Shown here one piece after another: positions 11,381 to 29,467 of a stretch of DNA of 29,467 bases. How positions within the stretch are numbered: position 1 is the stretch's first letter; the number at the start of each line of letters is the position of its first letter. The DNA is taken from positions 1 through 29,467 of the IMG/VR virus record IMGVR_UViG_3300010236_000012, one strand, 5' to 3'. The notes beneath the pieces are model-generated. The model was not told the origin of the DNA. It saw only the letters and a list, made by a program, of their open reading frames with translations, and ran no database searches. A program made the translations under genes and the position numbers. Source of the DNA: a virus (taxonomy: Duplodnaviria; Caudoviricetes).

Positions 11381-11417
11381 CAATAAAGAACCCGCTGAAT
11401 AAGCGGGTTTTTTATTG
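11381..11417 (+). terminator. Rho-independent terminator, probably bidirectional
   Basis: AACCCGC-loop-GCGGGTT followed by a T-run, with an A-rich 5' flank. Confidence 0.85.
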
Positions 11418-11823
11418 CCCACTAACTATTTTTCCTATTTTTCCTTATTAACCCATTACCCCTTTACCCCCTTGTGAAATTTTACACGTCCTACATCCAA
11501 CCACCTACACTATTTCAACTAATCTACTTATTAAGGATATAAGGTAAGTATCTAATATTATTAATATTTTATTTATTTTTTATTATTACCTTTCCTTTGA
11601 GTTATTTTTATATTATTATTTTTTTTTTTTTTTTTTTAGAAGTCATTCTGAGAGAGTACCCCCTAATTATGAGTGGTAATATACTAACATTATAATTATA
11701 TAACATAAAATAGTAAACATAAATTAAGTGGTAAATCTTAGGTAAGAGGGGAGTACTATATAAATCCAATTTAGGAAATATAATATAACGACATGACGTG
11801 ATTCTGCGCAAATGGATATTCAT

Positions 11824-11941
11824 TAATAAAATCAATAACTTACGTACTCTAAACTATAAAAATTTGGGTAATTTATCACTTTTTTTTTAAACGTAATAAA
11901 ATCAATAACTTACGTACTAAATACTATCTAAGTAATTGATT
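11824..11941. repeat. Two 25-bp direct repeats plus an inverted partial copy, each containing an IHF consensus
   Basis: TAATAAAATCAATAACTTACGTACT at 11824-11848 and 11894-11918; TAAGTAATTGATT at 11929-11941; all fit WATCAANNNNTTR. Confidence 0.8.
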
Positions 11942-11960
11942 TTACTTATATATTTTCCTC

Positions 11961-11989
11961 TTGACTTTTTTTATAAACTATAGCACTAT
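11961..11989 (+). promoter_or_regulatory. Probable sigma70 promoter
   Basis: TTGACT-N17-CACTAT upstream of ORF 12023. Confidence 0.5.
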
Positions 11990-12022
11990 AAATAAAAAAT
12001 ACAATAAAGGAACATTAAAACT

Positions 12023-12439
12023 ATGCCTAAATTAACAGAAGATAGATTAAAACTACAACAACAGGTAGAGCATATTTTAAAAAGAAAACTACAACATAGA
12101 ATATTACCAAATAATTATGTTAGAGAATACTATCCAGACTTCAAACCAACATTCGTATCTATTCCAATAAAGAATCAAGAAGAAATACATTACTCCCTTT
12201 TAATGCCAGATTATAACAAAACAAATCTTATTAGATTATTAAATAGAATAAAAAATCATATTATATTTTATGATTCAAATTCTTGGAAATATAATATATT
12301 TGTAAAATGTCAAGATTCATATCACTCATTTAAAGATGAACAGAGTTTTTTAGATGCATTAAAAATGTTCAGAATTTCAGTATATGTTGTTTATCCATCT
12401 GGACACTTTCTTGATTTTTTTGTAGCACAAAGACTATAA
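12023..12439 (+). CDS. Hypothetical protein (very AT-rich)
   Basis: 138-aa ORF with AAGGA SD, long for such AT-rich DNA. Confidence 0.7.
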   Translation: MPKLTEDRLKLQQQVEHILKRKLQHRILPNNYVREYYPDFKPTFVSIPIKNQEEIHYSLLMPDYNKTNLIRLLNRIKNHIIFYDSNSWKYNIFVKCQDSYHSFKDEQSFLDALKMFRISVYVVYPSGHFLDFFVAQRL

Positions 12440-12617
12440 ACACTAATAGTCCTAACTATCCGTAATTATTACTATTTTTACCCTGCCCTTTTATACTCCG
12501 AAAACCTAAGTAATTTCCTATACTTACGCTCCTATTCCTTATTACTATATACTATTACCCTTTACCCCTTATCTAACTATACGATATTATTAAGGAAAAT
12601 ATTATATAATAATTTCC

Positions 12618-12646
12618 TTGACTTTTCCTTAATACTATGATACGAT
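12618..12646 (+). promoter_or_regulatory. sigma70 promoter with extended -10
   Basis: TTGACT-N17-TACGAT with TG at the extended position. Confidence 0.7.
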
Positions 12647-12665
12647 AAAAATAAAAAGGTAAAAA

Positions 12666-12815
12666 ATGCCACCTAAAACTAAATCTAATCAAATATTAAA
12701 ATTAAAAAATTTGATAACATATCTCACTTTAATGGGAAATGCAAAAGATGATAGACAAATTAATTTATTAAAAGAATTAAAAGAAACTGTAAAGATTTTA
12801 GAAAATGCCCACTAA
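12666..12815 (+). CDS. Small hypothetical protein (49 aa)
   Basis: MPPKTKSNQILKLKNLITY...; AAGGT SD; below the ORF-track cutoff. Confidence 0.5.
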   Translation: MPPKTKSNQILKLKNLITYLTLMGNAKDDRQINLLKELKETVKILENAH

Positions 12816-15023: not shown

Positions 15024-16751
15024 ATGGAAAAAGATCACACACAAACTGTAATTTTTTGGTATTCGGGAGAGAATCACACAATATGCATAGACGCTAAAAA
15101 TGCATACCAGAGGTTTAATTTAAAAGGTGGTATATGGCGTCAAAAAGGCAATCGTTATTTCTTCCCTATGAATGATGAAAACATACAGATTCTTTTCAAA
15201 GATCATCCAGATGGAGGGTCTGACAGATGGAATGAATACAGATGGATTTGGAAGTTTTCACTTTGGGAAGGGATTTATAAATATCTTCAAAAACGTATCA
15301 CTAAGGTTGCAGACGATACATTTCTTACTAGGATTAATCTTGATAATGTATCGCGCTTTCCTAAAATATACAAGAAGGATGGTATGCCGGAACCATTCAA
15401 GAATCAACATGTGAGTCAATACTGGCAGCAAAAGACAGATTATCACGCCTACCTGTGGGAAATGGGTACTGGCAAAACAAGGGCTGGAGTCGAAGGATAT
15501 GAAATCAAGCGTAGACAAGGGAAGGTTGATCATTTGTTGATTATCTGCCCTGTGTCTATGCTTGACAAGTGGGTGGTTGAGATTGAAAAATGGGGCAGGG
15601 AAGAAATCCAAGCAGTTGCAATAAAGGGTAAAAATAGGGATGAAAAGTTAGACTTGCTTAAAATGGATTATGAAGCAATAGTTATCAACTTTGAATCAGC
15701 AGCTTTGATGGTTGATGATTTGCTTGAAATAGTAAATGAAAGGTGGATGATAATCTGTGACGAAACGACTAAAATCAAAAATCCAAGAGCTAACAGAACA
15801 AAGGCAGTACTTGACTTGGGTTTACGTACAGAATATAAAGCAATCCTTACAGGTACTCCAATTACACAGCACGCGTATGATGTATTTAGTCAATATGCTT
15901 TTCTTGATTCAGGTAAAACATTTGGTCTTAATTACGATGCTTTTCTTGACAAATACTTTTGGAAACAAGGATTCAAATTAATCAGTAAAGGTGAATGGGC
16001 ATTAAAAGAAGTGTCTGATAAGATGTATAAATCGAGCACACGATTCTTAAAGAAGGACTGCATAGACATACCGGACAAAATGTATGATAACAGAATACTC
16101 ACTTTGCCGGCATATAACCAAGAGAAGTACAAGGAAATGGTTAAGTATGCCATAACTCAAATTGAAGGTAGCGAACACGTTACAGCGGCGATTATACTAA
16201 CGCAATTACTTAGGTTAAGTCAAATAACATCGGGATTTGTGGTAGATGAACATGGGAAGGAGGTTAATTTTGATGAAAATCCGAAACTTGATGCTTTACG
16301 TGACATACTTGAGGAATCTAATTCTAGTAAGGTTGTTATTTGGGCGAGATTTAGGCAGGATGTTAGGAACATTTCAAGACTTTGCGAAGAACTCAAGATA
16401 AAATATGTACAAATGTATGGAGATATAAACAATGACCAACGCACTAGAAATGTCTCCGAATTTCAAAACAATCCAGATGTTAAAGTTATTATTGGTACTG
16501 CTAGTACGGGTGGGCATGGGATTGATCTTGTGGCCGGAACTATCGTGGTTTACTTCTCCAATTCATATTCCCTTGAACAAAGATTACAATCTGAGGATAG
16601 AACTCATAGAGCAGGACAAAGGAACCAAGTCACATACATCGACCTGCTCTGCAAAGATACAATAGATATAACAATATATAAGGTGTTGAGAAGCAAAAAA
16701 TCGGTGGCTGATATTGTGACCAGAGACTACAGATCACTCATGGGAGGCTGA
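15024..16751 (+). CDS. SNF2-family SF2 helicase/ATPase
   Basis: EMGTGKT, ICDE, LTGTP, LLRLSQITSGF, GIDL and QSEDRTHRAGQ motifs. Confidence 0.93.
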   Translation: MEKDHTQTVIFWYSGENHTICIDAKNAYQRFNLKGGIWRQKGNRYFFPMNDENIQILFKDHPDGGSDRWNEYRWIWKFSLWEGIYKYLQKRITKVADDTFLTRINLDNVSRFPKIYKKDGMPEPFKNQHVSQYWQQKTDYHAYLWEMGTGKTRAGVEGYEIKRRQGKVDHLLIICPVSMLDKWVVEIEKWGREEIQAVAIKGKNRDEKLDLLKMDYEAIVINFESAALMVDDLLEIVNERWMIICDETTKIKNPRANRTKAVLDLGLRTEYKAILTGTPITQHAYDVFSQYAFLDSGKTFGLNYDAFLDKYFWKQGFKLISKGEWALKEVSDKMYKSSTRFLKKDCIDIPDKMYDNRILTLPAYNQEKYKEMVKYAITQIEGSEHVTAAIILTQLLRLSQITSGFVVDEHGKEVNFDENPKLDALRDILEESNSSKVVIWARFRQDVRNISRLCEELKIKYVQMYGDINNDQRTRNVSEFQNNPDVKVIIGTASTGGHGIDLVAGTIVVYFSNSYSLEQRLQSEDRTHRAGQRNQVTYIDLLCKDTIDITIYKVLRSKKSVADIVTRDYRSLMGG

Positions 16752-19451: not shown

Positions 19452-19882
19452 AACGATACAGAGGGATAATAAGATTTCTCGGTGACACTTACACATACTG
19501 GACGTATGCCAGAGGATTAAATGCGGCATATTATAACTGTATTCACAAACTTTCAAAAGAAACTGGATACAAAGATAAATTTTTATTTGAATGTATTAAT
19601 ATGAAAATGTGTGATATTCATGAAGTTCCGGTCAAAAAAGAAGTGAGGATACCTGGAATGAAATATCTTGGTGAGGCTAGTTACGAAATCAAAGAGATAA
19701 AAATCGTTGATTTTGCAATTGATTCTTTTTCTGTTATAGTTGACAAAACTGGAATTATTTTTGAAGTGAAACCGATAGCGGGAGTTAGCGACAATGAAAA
19801 AGATAATCGGTCTGATGACAGACGCGCCAGATTACAATCTTGCTTTGATGAAATTATCCGCATTTCACAAGAGTCAAGGTGA
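19448..19882 (+). CDS. Hypothetical protein
   Basis: AGGAGG SD, ATGA coupling. Confidence 0.7.
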   Translation: MKRYRGIIRFLGDTYTYWTYARGLNAAYYNCIHKLSKETGYKDKFLFECINMKMCDIHEVPVKKEVRIPGMKYLGEASYEIKEIKIVDFAIDSFSVIVDKTGIIFEVKPIAGVSDNEKDNRSDDRRARLQSCFDEIIRISQESR

Positions 19883-20723
19883 TGAAGTTCATCTAAATGA
19901 TACGCTGAAACAATATGACTATGTTTATGCAAGTGTATTGTTTGATCACAACAAGAACAACGGCAGGTTTGCAACTGCTAATGAGTGTGGAGGGCCACAA
20001 TATCCTGATGTTAATTTACCTCCACATATTGAAAGAATTAAACCTGATTATGATTTGTATAAAAAGAATGATTTCAGCATTGGATATACGTTCAGACCGT
20101 GTTACCGTAGGTGTGAGTTTTGCTTAACTAAAACATTTAAGCAACCTGATAAGCGTCACCATAGTATATGGGAGTTCCACGATAAAAGGTTTAAGAAAAT
20201 TTGTTTGATGAATAATAATACCTTTATGGACCCATTTTGGAAAGACACTTTTGAGGAAATTTGGAAAGAGAATTTAATACTTAAGGAACACGGTCTGGAT
20301 ATTAGATTATTAGATGCTGAAAAAGCAGAGGCAATAAAGAAAACAAAGTTTGACGGACGTTACCATTTTGCTTGGGACAGAATGAAGGACGAACAGCTTA
20401 TTCTTCGTGGATTGCAGTTTGCAAAAGAGTATGACATAAAGGCACGGTTCTATGTTTTAGCAGGATATAATACAACATGGAAGGAAGATTTGTACCGTTG
20501 TCAAATCCTGATAAATTATGATCACGTTCCATATATTATGCCATATACGGACAACCCTACAGTAAAGGCCATGAAAAATTTCATTAACAGTCCAGGCAAT
20601 TGGTGGAATTACAAGGATGATATAACGAAAGGATGGGATGATTTTATAAAAGGACAAACTAAATCGAAGAAGAAAGAGAAAGCGAAATCTGATGCTGACG
20701 AACAACAAGCTGGCCTGTTTTGA
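19794..20723 (+). CDS. Radical SAM protein (phage-associated NLALMKLS family)
   Basis: CYRRCEFC (CxxxCxxC), N-terminal YNLALMKLSAFHK.QGD.V, GGP, GLDIRL, FAWD and YVLAGY motifs. Confidence 0.88.
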   Translation: MKKIIGLMTDAPDYNLALMKLSAFHKSQGDEVHLNDTLKQYDYVYASVLFDHNKNNGRFATANECGGPQYPDVNLPPHIERIKPDYDLYKKNDFSIGYTFRPCYRRCEFCLTKTFKQPDKRHHSIWEFHDKRFKKICLMNNNTFMDPFWKDTFEEIWKENLILKEHGLDIRLLDAEKAEAIKKTKFDGRYHFAWDRMKDEQLILRGLQFAKEYDIKARFYVLAGYNTTWKEDLYRCQILINYDHVPYIMPYTDNPTVKAMKNFINSPGNWWNYKDDITKGWDDFIKGQTKSKKKEKAKSDADEQQAGLF

Positions 20724-20819
20724 ATGTCCACATCCAGAAATACAGACTATTCCAGTTTATAATTGGAATAATAAACTAATAACCATTTGGCAACGCTGTA
20801 CTTATTGCGGGAGATACTT

Positions 20820-21788
20820 ATGGCAAGAAGAACTAGATCAATTACCAGACCAATATCTTACAAAACCATAGATATTCATCAACATGATATTGCAAATTTT
20901 ATGACTTGTCCGTTTAAGTATTATATGCAATCTGTTTTAAAGTATTCCAAACGGAAAAGAAATAAAAATATCAACATTGGTGATTGTGTAGCTAAGAGTG
21001 TTTATTGGTTGCATAAAGGTGAGCCTCTTGAGTTTTGTCTTGCATACATCGAAAAACTGCAAGAAGAAAAGACTCTGCTTGTTACAAAACAAGAAGAAGT
21101 TGATGATCTTTTAACCCAAGGTGTTCTTGCTCAAGGTTTAATTACCGGATACAATGAAATGTATTTGAATAGAGCAAGTCATGTTGTTGAAATCTTACCA
21201 GAGTTCCATACGAAAATGGAATTTATTAAGATGGGATACAAGATTATAATAACTTGCAGACTTGATGGGCTGGCCACTGATATGTGGGGTGGAATCAATA
21301 TTCTTGAACTTAAAACAACAGCACAAATAAACAAGAATATGATACTGTCCCTACCTGTTGATTTCCAGATAAACACATATTGGTTGTCATTATTAATGGG
21401 TAAGGTAAATCCTAAAGGTGTGCTGTATAGATGGATGAAAAAGACCGGCATTAGGTTGAAAAAGAAACAAACTCTGGAACAGTATAGACAAGAAATACTT
21501 ACTCTTTACAGTAAAGAGCCTGAGAACCTATTTATTCAGCAAGCACCGGAGTTTAAGCCGGAAGCAATTGAAAGATTTAAACCAAACTTTGATAAAATAT
21601 TAGAAGATTTGGTATGGTGTCATGTTCAAAATAAATTTGTACAAAGGGGGGTGAATTGTCTCGGAAAATTTTCTCCATGTAGTATGTTAGAATACTGTAG
21701 TAATCCGACATCAGAAACATTAAACACTTACTATGAGGTTAAACAAGAACAAACAGAAGAAAAAGAGGACGATGATGAAGCCGCTTGA
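20820..21788 (+). CDS. PD-(D/E)XK Cas4/RecB-like exonuclease
   Basis: RLDG...ELKT, QxxxY (FQINTY), N-terminal CP plus C-terminal C..C..C possible Fe-S ligands; ATG 20820. Confidence 0.85.
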   Translation: MARRTRSITRPISYKTIDIHQHDIANFMTCPFKYYMQSVLKYSKRKRNKNINIGDCVAKSVYWLHKGEPLEFCLAYIEKLQEEKTLLVTKQEEVDDLLTQGVLAQGLITGYNEMYLNRASHVVEILPEFHTKMEFIKMGYKIIITCRLDGLATDMWGGINILELKTTAQINKNMILSLPVDFQINTYWLSLLMGKVNPKGVLYRWMKKTGIRLKKKQTLEQYRQEILTLYSKEPENLFIQQAPEFKPEAIERFKPNFDKILEDLVWCHVQNKFVQRGVNCLGKFSPCSMLEYCSNPTSETLNTYYEVKQEQTEEKEDDDEAA

Positions 21789-22101: not shown

Positions 22102-22271
22102 GCAAATACTGTGAGTTTGAAATGCACGGTGTAAACTTCAAAGATTCCTCATTTGATGAAGGAAGAATTTACTTGGACATTACAAACCAATACGGACATA
22201 CAGTTTGCTTGAAATTTGACGACAAAGAAACAATACAACAACTAATTGAAGAATTGGAGGGATGGATATGA
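22098..22271 (+). CDS. Small hypothetical protein (57 aa)
   Basis: AAGGAG SD; ATGA overlaps at both ends. Confidence 0.6.
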   Translation: MSKYCEFEMHGVNFKDSSFDEGRIYLDITNQYGHTVCLKFDDKETIQQLIEELEGWI

Positions 22272-22990
22272 GCTTACCAACTGAAAAAACAAAGCCAAAA
22301 CTCAACTTGATGGATCACGTTATATTTCTTTACGGTATTCCAAAGATAGGTAAGAGTACACTCGTTTCTGAAATAGACGATGTGCTTTTCTTTAACACCG
22401 GCGGTGGCCTTGATGCTCTGGAGTGTTATCAGAAATCTATATCTGATTGGTTTACGTTTCTGGAAACATGCGCAGAGTTTGTGAAGGGGGAACACAAATT
22501 CAAGGTTGCCGCCATTGATACAGTAGATAGATTACATAAACAATGCGTTGCTTATCTTATGGAAAAACACAAAGTACAGCATCCGTCTGATCTTGAGTGG
22601 GGTAAGGGTTACGATATGGTAAAGGATGAGTTTATGCGTCCTTTGACAAAACTTGCCCTCAGTCCCTATGGTCTTGTTCTTATTTCACATGTTGATGAGC
22701 GTGAAGTTAAAACAAGAACTGCAACCATAACCAGAAGCGTTCCTACGTTACAGGGATATATATGGAACATGATTGACGGACTGACCGGAATTATCATGTT
22801 TATGACTGCTATTCAAGACAAGGATGGATATAGACGAATTATAAGAACAACTCCTAACGAAACTTATATAGCGGGAGACAGAACGAAAAGACTTGCATCC
22901 TATGGTGACATTGAAATCCTCAAAGACCAACCTAACTGGAAACGTATTGAGGAAGTGTTTAACAAATACGGGAAAGGAGAAACGAAATGA
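22262..22990 (+). CDS. AAA_24 / Sak4-like recombination ATPase
   Basis: Walker A YGIPKIGKST, Walker B AIDT, LISH; between exonuclease and SSB. Confidence 0.85.
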   Translation: MDMSLPTEKTKPKLNLMDHVIFLYGIPKIGKSTLVSEIDDVLFFNTGGGLDALECYQKSISDWFTFLETCAEFVKGEHKFKVAAIDTVDRLHKQCVAYLMEKHKVQHPSDLEWGKGYDMVKDEFMRPLTKLALSPYGLVLISHVDEREVKTRTATITRSVPTLQGYIWNMIDGLTGIIMFMTAIQDKDGYRRIIRTTPNETYIAGDRTKRLASYGDIEILKDQPNWKRIEEVFNKYGKGETK

Positions 22991-23448
22991 CAGAAGCGGT
23001 TGATGGATTTTTAGATCACATTTCAGGCGAACACGACCCCGGACAAGTGGAAGATGCTGGAGGTATGCCACCAGATGCCACCTATCAATGCAGACTTGAC
23101 AAAATTTACTTCAAAGAAATGAAGGACGGAAAGATTAAATGCGTTATGGAATTTGAAGTTATGAACGGTAAGTATGCTCACCGTACTATCTTCAAATGGT
23201 GTAATATGGACAACGTACAGAATCTTGACTGGCTTACAAGAGATTTGCGTATGTTGGGTGTTCCGGTAAACTTCAAATGGAACAGTGTCCAGAAAGAACA
23301 TTTTAGCAATCTTTTAGACAAGCCTTTCGAGATTGAAGTTAAAACCAAAGGTGAATTTACAAACGTGTATATCAAAAAGGCATTGAAAGCTGATGAGGTT
23401 TTCATCGGCCAAGGTTTAAAAAACGGTGAAAAGGATGTACCATTCTAA
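22987..23448 (+). CDS. Putative ssDNA-binding protein (DUF669-like)
   Basis: P..TY, G.YA.R.IF motifs, C-terminal DVPF tail; follows the Sak4-like gene. Confidence 0.75.
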   Translation: MTEAVDGFLDHISGEHDPGQVEDAGGMPPDATYQCRLDKIYFKEMKDGKIKCVMEFEVMNGKYAHRTIFKWCNMDNVQNLDWLTRDLRMLGVPVNFKWNSVQKEHFSNLLDKPFEIEVKTKGEFTNVYIKKALKADEVFIGQGLKNGEKDVPF

Positions 23449-23836: not shown

Positions 23837-26605
23837 ATGAAATTCTTGGAATTTTACAAGCGTTACTTTCCCGACTTGAAAGAAACAGTAAGGAAACAAA
23901 ATGTCATCTGTCCTTTCCATGCAGATAGTGATCCAAGTTGTAGCTTAGACCTTGAAGAAGGTCTTTATTATTGTCATTCGTGTAATATTGGTGGTGATAT
24001 ATTCGATTTTTATATGAAGTATCACCGTTGTTCTTTTACAAAGGCAAAGAATGACATATTAGGAAACCAAAAGGCTCCGGTTCTTACACCTACGGAAGCT
24101 AAGGTTGCCCATGAAAAATTGCTAAGTTCACCTGATCTCCAGAAGCTACTACTCGTAAAGCGTGGTTGGACTATACAAACGATAATTGATTTCAAGTTGG
24201 GATGGAGCGATGAAAGAGTTTATATACCAATACATAATAAGGACGGACGACTTTTAAACATAAGGAAATATGATGTACTGCATAAAACAAAGCAAAAGTT
24301 TCTCGGCATTGAAGGACATAATCAAGTTCGTCTCTGGCCAGAAGATATACTTAGACAAGAGATTGTTATTATCTTCGGAGGGGAACCAGACACCATACTG
24401 GCTACGCAAATGGGACTTCCGGCTGTTACGTTTGCAAATGGTGAAGGGACATTCCGTGCTGAATTACTACCTAGCTTTGAGAACAAGAAAGTTTATATAT
24501 GTTATGACGTGGATGATGCTGGAGCCAAAGGGGCAAAGGTTTTATCTGAGGCAATATCCAAATTCGCAGCAGAAACATATGTCATAAATTTACCGCATAA
24601 AATACTTCCAGTAAAGGGAGATTTTACAGATTTAGTTTTGTATTGTATAGATCAAAGTGTAGATTTTACCGCAACGTGGAACAAATGTGTTGAAAACGCA
24701 ATAAGGATTGATTACGTTGAGGTAGTTGATAATAAGGATTATGAAGAAATTGATTATTACGCAGCAGTAAGCGAAGATTATTATGGAAAAGATGTAACCT
24801 ATAGAGCTATGGCAATAGGTAAAAACTTTTCCCCGTTCTTTGCACCAAAGAAGTTGCATTTGTCTTGCGAGACTACTCGCGGTGATACATGTAAAAACTG
24901 CATATTATTCTTTGTTGGTGGTAAATATGTTAAAGAAATTGATGAATCTCAATCATTGGATTTGATTAAATGTACACAGGGTGAACAGAAAAATAAAATA
25001 AAAACATTATGCGGAATACACAATTGCAATCAATTCAAAATGGAAATGGACACTCAAACAATAGAAGAAATATTTGTAGCTCCGATGATAGATTCGGAAC
25101 GAATAGATAGACAATTTATAGTCAGAAAGTGTTACAGTAAAGGACATAATTTACAAATAAATAAGGCATATAGGTTTAAGGGAAAGACAATACCAGATGC
25201 AAAAACTCAAGAAGCCACACAACTGTTTGTTAGTGCTGAACCAGAAATGTCAAACCTGGAGTTGTTCCAACTTGAACCAAAAGATATAGATGATTTAAGA
25301 ATATTCAATCCACGGATTAACAGTTATGCTGGAATAGATGAAAGAACTTATGAAATATCACGAGACTTATCATACAACATACCGGAGGTAATCATTGGAC
25401 GAGAAAATTTACTCTTTGGATACGACTTGGTATTTCACTCGGTACTTCGATTTAAGCTCCTCGACTCGGTTGTGGCTAAGGGCTGGACTGAAATGCTGGC
25501 AATTGGGGATACAAGAACTGGCAAAACCAAAACAGCAGTCAAACTATGTCATCACTATAGAGTGGGAGAGTATGTCACCCTCGAGTCAGCAACTCTACCA
25601 GGACTTGTCGGCGGTATGTCTCAAGTTGGAAGGGATGTCACGTTCAGTTGGGGTGTTCTCCCAATTAACGATGGACGATTGGTATTGTTGGATGAGGCAA
25701 ATGGCCTTGATCCTGCCGGAATCAGCAACCTTAGTTCCATCCGTGACAATGGGGTGGCTGAGAGGACTGTGGTTGGCAGCACAAGAAAAACCACAAGTAG
25801 AGTCAGACTTATTTGGATTTCAAACCCACGATCAACAAAATCAATTTCATACTATTCTACAGGAGTTGAAGCAATTAGAGAACTCATGGGGAGAGCCGAA
25901 GATATATCCAGGCTTGACTTCGCTATAGTTGTCGCCAAAGAAGATGTTGGCATAGAGAAAATAAACACGGCAAGTCATAAAAAGCCAGAACATAAATATA
26001 CTTCCGAACTATGTCATAAACTTATAATGTGGACATGGAGCAGAAAAGAAGAAAATATCAAATTCACCAAAGATGCAGAGGATGAAATACTTAAATCAGC
26101 AATTGATATGAGCAATAAATATAGCGATGCAATTCCTTTGGTGCAGGGTAGTGTACAAAGAATTAAGATTGCTAAATTAGCAGTTGCTCTTGCATGTAGA
26201 TTGTTTTCGACAGAAGATGGTATTAATGTAATTGTTCATAAGGAACATGTTCAATTTATAACATATTACTTACAACAAATATATGATTCACCTTACTTTG
26301 GATACCTTGACTTTTCAAACAATAAACGTGATGAGTCTAAAATATCTGACATAGATGGAATTGAAAAAGAAATAAGGTTGCTTGATGATTCAGAAAGATT
26401 TGTAAATAAAATGCTTGCTACTAATACAATACTTTATGATGATCTTGTTGATTTTTCTGGTAAGTCAAGAGATTATGTAAAGGATTTAAAATCTAAATTA
26501 GTTGCTGGTAATTGTATAACAAGAAGGAAAACTTTTTATATAAAAACGCCAGAGTTTATTAAGTTGCTAAAAAGAATGCAATTGGAGGTAAAAAGAAATG
26601 GGTAA
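23837..26605 (+). CDS. Primase-helicase fusion: CHC2 Zn finger, TOPRIM and MCM-family AAA+ helicase
   Basis: CPFH..SC...CHSC; YDVDDAG; Walker A IGDTRTGKT; SATLPGL; WGVLPINDGRLVLLDE; WISNP; ISRLDF (MCM SRFD arginine finger). Confidence 0.88.
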   Translation: MKFLEFYKRYFPDLKETVRKQNVICPFHADSDPSCSLDLEEGLYYCHSCNIGGDIFDFYMKYHRCSFTKAKNDILGNQKAPVLTPTEAKVAHEKLLSSPDLQKLLLVKRGWTIQTIIDFKLGWSDERVYIPIHNKDGRLLNIRKYDVLHKTKQKFLGIEGHNQVRLWPEDILRQEIVIIFGGEPDTILATQMGLPAVTFANGEGTFRAELLPSFENKKVYICYDVDDAGAKGAKVLSEAISKFAAETYVINLPHKILPVKGDFTDLVLYCIDQSVDFTATWNKCVENAIRIDYVEVVDNKDYEEIDYYAAVSEDYYGKDVTYRAMAIGKNFSPFFAPKKLHLSCETTRGDTCKNCILFFVGGKYVKEIDESQSLDLIKCTQGEQKNKIKTLCGIHNCNQFKMEMDTQTIEEIFVAPMIDSERIDRQFIVRKCYSKGHNLQINKAYRFKGKTIPDAKTQEATQLFVSAEPEMSNLELFQLEPKDIDDLRIFNPRINSYAGIDERTYEISRDLSYNIPEVIIGRENLLFGYDLVFHSVLRFKLLDSVVAKGWTEMLAIGDTRTGKTKTAVKLCHHYRVGEYVTLESATLPGLVGGMSQVGRDVTFSWGVLPINDGRLVLLDEANGLDPAGISNLSSIRDNGVAERTVVGSTRKTTSRVRLIWISNPRSTKSISYYSTGVEAIRELMGRAEDISRLDFAIVVAKEDVGIEKINTASHKKPEHKYTSELCHKLIMWTWSRKEENIKFTKDAEDEILKSAIDMSNKYSDAIPLVQGSVQRIKIAKLAVALACRLFSTEDGINVIVHKEHVQFITYYLQQIYDSPYFGYLDFSNNKRDESKISDIDGIEKEIRLLDDSERFVNKMLATNTILYDDLVDFSGKSRDYVKDLKSKLVAGNCITRRKTFYIKTPEFIKLLKRMQLEVKRNG

Positions 26606-26765
26606 AAAATACCAAATAGCGTTACATGGATGCGATGATTCAACTTACATTAAATTAAAATTGACTGAAGATGAATTAAAATTTGTTAAGAAACTTTGTA
26701 GGTTAAGCGAAAAAGAATCAACGTATGGCTGTATGCCAACTATGGAGGTAAAAGAAGATGCCTAA
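26598..26765 (+). CDS. Small phage protein (55 aa, GCDDST...YGCMP)
   Basis: GGAGGT SD; overlaps both neighbours. Confidence 0.65.
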   Translation: MGKKYQIALHGCDDSTYIKLKLTEDELKFVKKLCRLSEKESTYGCMPTMEVKEDA

Positions 26766-27180
26766 AGTATATCAGAAAAAAAGACAGTTCCCCAAAAGGG
26801 AAAATGATTTTCTTGCACAATTTATGAAGCCATTTCAGAATGATCCATTATGTTGGTTTTTCAAAACTCATGGTGAACCGATGCAAACAAGAGGAATACC
26901 AGACATTCTTATGTGCTATGGTGGTTTATTTGTGAGTTTTGAATTTAAGATAATGAGGAACGGTAAACTAAATGTAACTCCATTTCAAGATTATACTATG
27001 GACAAAATAAAGAAATCTAACGGACTTTGTTTTGTAATATGGTATGATGATTCAAATGGAGAAACTGGAATAGGAATGACGCGATATAAGAATATGGAAG
27101 ATGCAGTTATGTGGGTTAAGTCATCACTTATTGCTATATCACAGATACCTTGTGCTAAGTTTAAGGAGTTAGAAAATTAA
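26758..27180 (+). CDS. VRR-NUC / Holliday-junction-resolvase-like PD-(D/E)XK nuclease
   Basis: E..F, GIPDI, EFK, T..Q motifs. Confidence 0.85.
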   Translation: MPKVYQKKRQFPKRENDFLAQFMKPFQNDPLCWFFKTHGEPMQTRGIPDILMCYGGLFVSFEFKIMRNGKLNVTPFQDYTMDKIKKSNGLCFVIWYDDSNGETGIGMTRYKNMEDAVMWVKSSLIAISQIPCAKFKELEN

Positions 27181-28754: not shown

Positions 28755-28997
28755 ATGAAAAAGATGTTACGGGCAATCGGAGCATTTTGTTGCTTAATCT
28801 TTCTCCTGACCTTCATGAGTATTCTTTTTTTTATCATCTTTTCAAAAAGGACTCGGCAGAGGAAGAGTATCGGGAGATGTTGGAAAACATCTATGATGGA
28901 AGTGCGTTTCTTCAATGAACCCAGGGGACATAGGTCGTGGTATGTACCCTCAATGGATGCGGGTATGTGTAAGGGGTGTATGAGTAGGTCGTATTAA
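28755..28997 (+). CDS. Possible small membrane protein
   Basis: GGAGG SD, hydrophobic N-terminus; 3' end overlaps the convergent gene. Confidence 0.4.
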   Translation: MKKMLRAIGAFCCLIFLLTFMSILFFIIFSKRTRQRKSIGRCWKTSMMEVRFFNEPRGHRSWYVPSMDAGMCKGCMSRSY

Positions 28998-29466
28998 AGA
29001 AGTCCACGTTCTCTGCCAGGCAATTCTGTACTGAGCAAGTAGTAGTCGAGCACTCTATTGCAATAGTCGCGTTTACGGGAGTGCTTCCATTCTTCGTATT
29101 TCCCCAAAAATAAGTACCTGAAACGTGCTGCGGCTCACCATCACTCGTTGCCGATCCGTTGTTTGTGGGGTTGCAATCGTCAGAAAATTCCTCTTTTGTG
29201 GTCATGTCAACCCCGCTGGTGGTGATAGCATCGTTGTTATTAACTAGATGCTTGCCGCCTCTTGCATCTTCAATCCTAATGCTCTCATTATTCGTAGATG
29301 TAATTAAATTATAAGATACCTCTGTGCCCATAGAGGCATAATTTCCGCCAACGCCTTCATTGCCGTGAGCATCAAAAACAGGGGCGATTCCAGTTGTTCC
29401 ATTCCAGTTATAGGCATTGTGTCTTGCGGCATACCGTCCACCATCTCCACATGAATGGAAGGCAAA
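28912..29466 (-). CDS. C-terminal part of a parallel beta-helix (pectin-lyase-like) protein, possible tailspike/depolymerase (partial)
   Basis: Frame open to the window edge: GGRYAARHN, FDAHG, E.SYN, RGG...NN, Y.WGN, YTPYTYPHPL; Asn/Thr/Gly-rich. Confidence 0.65.
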   Translation of the reverse strand, partial: FAFHSCGDGGRYAARHNAYNWNGTTGIAPVFDAHGNEGVGGNYASMGTEVSYNLITSTNNESIRIEDARGGKHLVNNNDAITTSGVDMTTKEEFSDDCNPTNNGSATSDGEPQHVSGTYFWGNTKNGSTPVNATIAIECSTTTCSVQNCLAENVDFFNTTYSYTPYTYPHPLRVHTTTYVPWVH

Positions 29467-29467
29467 G

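Follow-up and report, generated by a model that had tools for sequence, protein, structure and literature searches.

A DnaG-type primase fused to an MCM-type helicase in a tailed phage, with a probably relocated TOPRIM glutamate

In the window (the whole stretch of 29,467 bases analyzed, which is the complete contig record of an uncultured tailed phage), a single intact open reading frame joins a DnaG-type primase to a genuine helicase module of the MCM type. The fusion itself is common in phages and little studied; what is new here is a probably displaced primase glutamate. A glycine occupies the canonical place of the TOPRIM catalytic glutamate, a point that the earlier note on this DNA had overlooked, and sequence comparisons suggest that the glutamate has probably been relocated rather than lost, with Glu203 predicted to replace the missing Glu181 in catalysis. 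We consider it probable that the protein as a whole joins a DnaG-type primase, active through Glu203, to a 3'-5' MCM ring of the BcMCM type, with priming on the leading face and hand-over to host Pol III. We also lean, if only narrowly, towards the broader reading that a working DnaG-type primase, with a TOPRIM glutamate that shifted into an adjacent loop, possibly on several occasions, is carried at the leading side of an MCM ring that drives host Pol III, which would amount to a second solution of the TOPRIM active site and to a chimeric replisome core in one gene.

Table 1. Positions in the window of the fusion gene, its parts and the neighbouring genes.
Feature	Position	Strand	Basis
Primase-MCM helicase fusion gene, 922 aa (P0001)	23837..26605	+	single intact ORF
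CHC2 zinc-binding domain (C25, H28, C46, C49)	23876..24061	+	PF01807, E 2.9e-13; 1d0q and 2au3 matches
DnaG-type RNA-polymerase domain, TOPRIM fold	24080..24715	+	VIA Z 20.1 to B. subtilis DnaG; conservation table
Gly181 (GGA) at the canonical place of the TOPRIM catalytic glutamate	24377..24379	+	aligns to E of DnaG VEGY/FEGF
Glu203 (GAA), predicted substitute for the catalytic glutamate, in the loop that follows TOPRIM strand 2	24443..24445	+	mutual exclusion with Glu181; covariation
MCM N-terminal zinc and OB-fold subdomains (B, C), subdomain A absent	24737..25261	+	VIA alignments; cysteines
MCM AAA+ motor	25268..26326	+	profile-PDB alignment, conservation, VIA, BcMCM alignment
Predicted C-terminal winged helix	26384..26581	+	secondary-structure order in the model
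SNF2-type helicase, same replication module	15024..16751	+	Pfam / PHROG-type matches
Radical-SAM-like protein, C-terminal QAGLF, presumably akin to a sliding-clamp-binding motif	19794..20723	+	phrog_9298
PD-(D/E)XK exonuclease	20787..21788	+	domain/family profile matches
Sak4-like annealase (AAA_24)	22262..22990	+	domain/family profile matches
DUF669-type SSB, terminal KDVPF, presumably like a bacterial SSB tail	22987..23448	+	phrog_378
Endonuclease after the fusion gene	26758..27180	+	phrog_93

A homologue search returned 90 proteins among 6018 candidates, and the alignment and profile were built from 89 of these (all except P0090). Against the PDB, the 89-homologue profile matched DnaG of Aquifex (1e-28) and then archaeal and eukaryotic MCMs (1.7e-14 onward), and the AlphaFold model of the whole protein had a pLDDT of 88.6. 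The earlier note had proposed a bacterial-type primase and an MCM-type helicase in one reading frame, and this is confirmed by the profile, by the fold and by homology to BcMCM. The DnaG-like CHC2 and TOPRIM domains that it named are borne out by the PF01807 match and by the DnaG-core fold of residues 1-293, and the Cys-rich joining region that it described is real, being the zinc subdomain of the MCM, with C344, C352 and C355 invariant in 89/89 homologues. Pfam profiles recovered part of this architecture in the protein itself: zf-CHC2 was found, Toprim_2 (aa 185-253) stayed below the cut-off with an E of 0.0015, and the MCM profile gave no match at E 0.01.

The CHC2 match covers aa 14-75, and residues E183, D185, D224, D226, D262, D265, R143 and K154 are conserved in the RNA-polymerase domain. 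Folded alone, residues 1-293 gave a pLDDT of 94.9 and aligned with the B. subtilis DnaG core in VIA over 197 residues (rmsd 2.3). The fold also matches T7 gp4 and Twinkle (Z 17-18), and RNase M5 and other TOPRIM nucleases were among the matches as well. The score against TIGR01391, the equivalog of cellular DnaG, was 71 bits and did not reach the cut-off of 283.6.

Where DnaG has VEGY or FEGF, the fusion protein has FGGEPD. TOPRIM domains are defined by a glutamate and a DxD motif (PMC5517523), and the equivalent glutamate is described as absolutely required in DnaG, with E268Q as the control (PMC3575809). The predicted shift is 22 residues downstream, from 181 to 203, and in the alignment position 203 corresponds to the Thr in the LGT/MGT loop of DnaG. 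This loop borders the catalytic glutamate in DnaG, and the strand order of the model is consistent with a placement of the loop beside the catalytic-glutamate site. Relatives with at least 47% identity carried Ala, Gly or Ser at position 181 in 41/41 cases, and a sequencing error was rejected as the source of Gly181 because the glutamate is also absent from all of these. Among the more distant rows, which include six AEP-type or headless rows, Glu181 was present in 39/48.

Glutamates at the two positions exclude each other. In a table of 262 rows, from which seven AEP-type rows were excluded and which was not dereplicated, so that some contigs appear twice, 178 rows had only Glu181 and 84 had only Glu203, with none showing both or neither. 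After dereplication at 90%, Glu203 was found in 55/55 proteins without Glu181 as compared to 0/116 proteins with it, the latter having a small or aliphatic residue at position 203. The remaining active-site residues are retained in the Glu203 proteins (E183, D224, D226 and K154 in 55/55, D185 in 52/55). In the divergent Glu203 proteins P0069, P0070 and P0071, D185 is replaced by Lys (GGE[LV]K), and a few Glu181 proteins show the same replacement. When the rows were thinned at 80%, leaving 153, the strongest covariation (z 10.5) was that between positions 181 and 203, which were also the sole columns to separate both groups at over 93%. Sequences fetched later kept the exclusion rule in 14/14 cases. 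The Glu203 form is also present in the cultured phage API480, whose protein, with 24% identity, reads CAGEKD and FTGGEG and is the only annotated primase in a complete 45-kb genome, where it adjoins the phage's own PolA. This protein, gp47 (L241:4995-7787), has a degenerate Walker A region, GEPRSMKS, although the phage is cultured.

How often the glutamate moved was assessed from trees. Free trees gave 1 to 4 changes or groups for Glu203, and AU tests of a single origin yielded p-AU values of 0.76 and 0.66 (both with 41 rows) and 0.48 (48 rows), in quick trees with long branches. Repeated independent origins were not upheld, the tests being compatible with one. Since a single origin was not rejected, the perfect covariation may represent one event that has been kept for a long time. 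The matches from region searches with the variant TOPRIM were 4 shorter proteins and 34 near-length ones, and another helicase family was annotated in none of them. A literature search, limited to titles and abstracts and mostly open-access, found no report of a moved TOPRIM glutamate, so that an earlier description is possible, and no paper stating the result of the equivalent T7 gp4 mutation was found. The TOPRIM glutamate is regarded as essential and unvarying, and domains that lack it are called dead on that ground. A natural family in which it has probably moved, with two clean reciprocal forms, allows a direct test of the role of the carboxylate and is a warning against motif-based calls of inactivity.

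The same observations can be read differently, namely that the primase domain of the Glu203 lineage has no catalytic activity left and persists as a DNA- or metal-binding aid to helicase loading, like human Twinkle, with host DnaG providing the primers. This would fit with the absence of a required glutamate from its canonical place and with the close clade, where no polymerase was found and host-type SSB tails are present, and Twinkle does retain an inactive primase-like domain that is needed for helicase function (PMC4417153). However, the account in PMC4417153 has Twinkle without most of the metal-binding residues, whereas the zinc ligands, the DxD motif, E183, D262 and K154 are all conserved here, and rows without Glu181 carry a new invariant glutamate (84/84) that is found in 0/178 rows with Glu181. 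In addition, API480 and a locus from a candidate-division FCPU426 bin (L158) have the variant alongside their own PolA. A dead primase was our first working idea; it was weakened by the Glu203 pattern, and we now regard it as unlikely.

Less likely still, in our judgment, is a reshaped site with changed chemistry, which would make other primers (from dNTPs, with another initiating nucleotide or with another metal) or serve at the origin as a nuclease of the TOPRIM kind. TOPRIM folds serve nucleases as well, such as RNase M5 and others among the fold matches, the primase of BcMCM prefers dNTPs (PMC3273815), and Glu203 sits at the conserved Thr of the DnaG GT loop. Against this, the protein agrees with the canonical-glutamate relatives in the zinc domain, in the basic subdomain residues and in every other acidic residue, and the swap is accompanied by no other co-changing column. 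The preferred reading is that of a primase active through Glu203.

For the helicase part, only MCMs were found among the matches listed for the full model, both by Foldseek (E 2e-22) and by VIA. The best VIA match (Z 30.5, rmsd 5.7, 448 aligned) pairs model residues 301-824 with MCM residues 103-603, spanning the zinc and OB subdomains as well as the AAA+ motor. Within it, model residues 301-475 align with the MCM N-domain. The VIA alignments to archaeal MCM and Mcm6 rows begin at about MCM residue 90-105, past subdomain A, which is missing from the fusion protein; residues 1-293 form the DnaG module instead. The module is therefore MCM-like, not a canonical cellular MCM. Conservation among the 89 homologues was nearly complete for the motor residues, with Walker A K563, Walker B E620 (beside D619) and sensor 1 N663 in 89/89, the arginine finger R692 in 88/89 and sensor 2 R775 in 86/89. 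The motor motifs, including the SRF-type arginine finger, were aligned to 4r7y, and the model hairpins E592-605 and E640-653 aligned to the helix-2 insert and the pre-sensor-1 hairpin of MCM. The model topology fits a C-terminal winged helix; Pfam winged-helix matches on homologues were sub-threshold.

The closest functional reference is BcMCM (BC1863) from the Bacillus prophage phBC6A51, which aligned with the fusion protein from residue 314 (30% over 622 aa, E 8e-63). Its residues K653, D711 and R782, tested by mutation, correspond to K563, D619 and R692. BcMCM is described as a hexamer that unwinds in the 3'-5' direction and has an N-terminal AEP primase-polymerase (PMC3273815), and by analogy the fusion protein is likely to be hexameric with 3'-5' polarity. 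The two proteins are alike in the MCM module, the catalytic residues, an N-terminal primase and the phage replication context, but the fusion protein has CHC2 and a DnaG TOPRIM in place of the AEP head, with no BC1863 alignment before residue 314, and phBC6A51 encodes PolA next door, whereas none was found in the close lineage of the fusion protein. It is very improbable that the C-terminal domain is instead a non-helicase AAA+ ATPase of the MoxR or Mg-chelatase type, as the earlier note had raised: the protein itself misses the Pfam MCM profile and some homologues match AAA_5 and Mg_chelatase weakly, but the MCM profile outscores these on every checked homologue that matches both (for P0088, 1.7e-11 versus 1.4e-4 and 1.3e-3, respectively), the structural match includes the MCM OB/zinc domain, and the homology to a proven helicase is direct. 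MoxR and Mg-chelatase were also absent among the fold matches listed, which by itself excludes nothing.

In other relatives the same MCM module carries AEP-like heads, seen as sub-threshold Pfam matches in 4/6 homologues checked, and the AEP-headed relatives are interleaved with DnaG-headed forms in the trees. For this reason the N-terminal slot is considered a primase slot, and a single phage MCM family takes either primase class in place of subdomain A. In this position the primase would, by analogy with cellular MCM, land on the leading face, where the eukaryotic primase also sits. The alpha protein of phage P4 has 3'-5' polarity. This protein is likewise a DnaG primase fused to an AAA+ helicase, of the SF3 type (PMC4889955). 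Given this precedent and the leading-face position, the strand geometry is not as unusual as the earlier note had suggested. In the mechanism that we propose, the MCM ring would unwind phage DNA in the 3'-5' direction with its N-terminal face leading, as in cellular MCM, and six tethered primase heads would point towards the fork, where the excluded lagging-strand template would be within their reach. The primase would prime the displaced strand through Glu203 in lieu of Glu181, and in the close lineage, judging from gene content and tail motifs, the primers may be handed to host Pol III and its clamp, recruited through the acidic tail of the phage SSB. The family would then be a single-chain system for studying how a bacterial primase works when placed ahead of a 3'-5' MCM ring, and it also bears on whether host Pol III can follow an MCM-type helicase.

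No polymerase was found in the window by Pfam, PHROG-type and later scans. Among the close records, which are linear contigs of 60-91% completeness in which a polymerase could be missed, PolA was absent in 7/7 (0/4 and 0/3), and DnaE, PolB and Prim-Pol were found in 0/5 each. A Pfam scan of 99/131 ORFs of five close records detected neither a polymerase nor a primase; the 32 ORFs outside the scan were judged by size and position to be already identified or counterparts of scanned genes. In G001, virion genes flank the early arm on both sides. PolA or DnaE was located near 37/45 Glu181 loci and 0/8 Glu203 loci, counted among related rows with at least 8 kb downstream after thinning at 80% and excluding L158, which has a short flank; an earlier, smaller count gave 23/28 and 0/4, respectively. 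A causal tie between the glutamate swap and polymerase loss was rejected, since the rows are related and in both L158 and API480 the Glu203 form adjoins PolA.

At the Glu203 loci, 16/18 distinct SSB tails end in D[VI]PF, which we take to resemble the bacterial SSB tail. Near the end of the radical-SAM-like protein, Q/N-x-x-L-F was present in 9/9 distinct tails from these loci, presumably resembling a sliding-clamp-binding motif. Because the close relatives lack a detected polymerase and keep host-type SSB tails, the use of host Pol III is likely for the close Glu203 lineage. It does not characterize the fusion in general, as is evident from the Glu181 loci with PolA or DnaE. The suggestion in the earlier note of host polymerase and clamp use thus holds as likely for the close lineage and does not extend to the family. 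The radical-SAM-like protein is retained in most close relatives and may possibly be a DNA-modifying or repair enzyme that follows the fork. The primase-MCM proteins P0003, P0004 and P0018 have PF ends of their own that are similar to SSB tails (EEAPF, EETPF and GVPF).

The earlier note had assumed that MCMs have few phage examples; full-length relatives occur in hundreds of viral contigs and in 48 phage records. These 48 are the records, out of 171 matching, in which the match covers at least 80% of the protein, and the MCM part matched 53 phage records, including Microbacterium, Bacillus, Arthrobacter, Weizmannia and Paenibacillus phages. Relatives are encoded in 438/599 pattern-matching viral stretches among the matches listed, in 272/550 metagenome stretches and in 3/252 genome stretches, and several ESM Atlas clusters of 59-161 members have the same architecture. 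The phage relatives are mostly annotated as "primase" or "primase/helicase", and hundreds of phage genes so labelled become recognisable as MCM-type. Five phage proteins with 24-32% identity (Krampus gp47, BSP7 gp45, Wollypog gp50, and those of Youna2 and API480, gp47) share the full-length DnaG-MCM architecture and similar neighbouring replication genes, with GenBank product names that do not mention MCM. Of the five checked, API480 alone has the Glu203 form; the other four phages retain Glu181 and have a DnaE or PolA of their own.

Among known systems, the EGExD form of motif IV, which is the Twinkle/T7 motif, is shared between the fusion protein and T7 gp4/Twinkle. A DnaG-type primase N-terminal to a ring helicase is described for phage P4 alpha (SF3) and for T7 gp4/Twinkle (SF4) (PMC4889955). 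In contrast to these three, the helicase of the fusion protein is SF6 with the MCM OB/zinc tier, and the glutamate is displaced. The OB, zinc and AAA+ architecture and the motifs are the same as in archaeal and eukaryotic MCM, from which the fusion protein differs in lacking subdomain A, in its low identity (10-16%) and in carrying the primase in the same chain. The SF6 architecture rows examined in the supplementary table of PMC4889955 comprise AEP, DUF3987 and archaeal MCM and contain no DnaG-MCM fusion, and its text mentions DUF3987 helicases that are fused to AEP or DnaG or lie next to them. PMC5862659 notes that MCMs occur together with AEPs in phages and bacterial elements, and Cch2 is treated in PMC7581432; PMC9198812 and PMC5513430 contributed nothing further. 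No paper on a DnaG-MCM fusion was found in titles and abstracts, mostly open-access, and an earlier description is possible. The fusion thus represents a real and widespread variant of the phage primase-MCM replicase that is apparently undescribed.

Primase and MCM also occur as two ORFs. This was observed in a Glu203 subclade (L085, L099, L190 and L193); in L085:8222-11719 about 600 bp separate the two ORFs, and the break falls immediately ahead of the xDFTD motif, which stands at the head of the MCM ORF. The Glu203 gene of L158 (10001-15313) is split near residue 505, with PolA directly downstream and a tyrosine recombinase upstream. Two-ORF relatives with the canonical glutamate are L037, L038, L122, L192, L207, L230, L232, L234 and L238; in those with a listed length, the first ORF has about 445-590 residues.

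The window covers only part of the genome; relatives reach about 41 kb. Its minus strand carries terminase, P22/SU10-like portal and capsid genes, and its plus strand the replication genes, in the order SNF2 helicase, radical-SAM-like protein, exonuclease, Sak4, SSB, fusion gene and endonuclease. An open frame at 28912-29467 (-) runs off the contig end and is likely to be the final part of a virion gene. The tRNA search found no tRNA genes, and no iteron-like repeats adjoining the fusion gene were found. A promoter scan of the control region showed no enrichment (8, as compared to 10.2 in shuffles). An AT-rich region at 11400-12700 separates the two gene arms and contains the quasi-palindrome TAAGTA-N8-TACTTA at 11545, 11929 and 12507, with variants at 11824, 11894 and 12573. 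There were 4 matches against 0.18 expected, for a pattern derived from the same region. Similar copies are present in L128, L130 and L007, and most of 20 exact viral matches lie in unrelated contigs. The element is a candidate operator or origin site. In three loci (L127:10967-12229, L130:4069-5340 and L132:2488-3750), a PurD/GARS-like ATP-grasp gene closes the virion arm, directly after a giant ORF.
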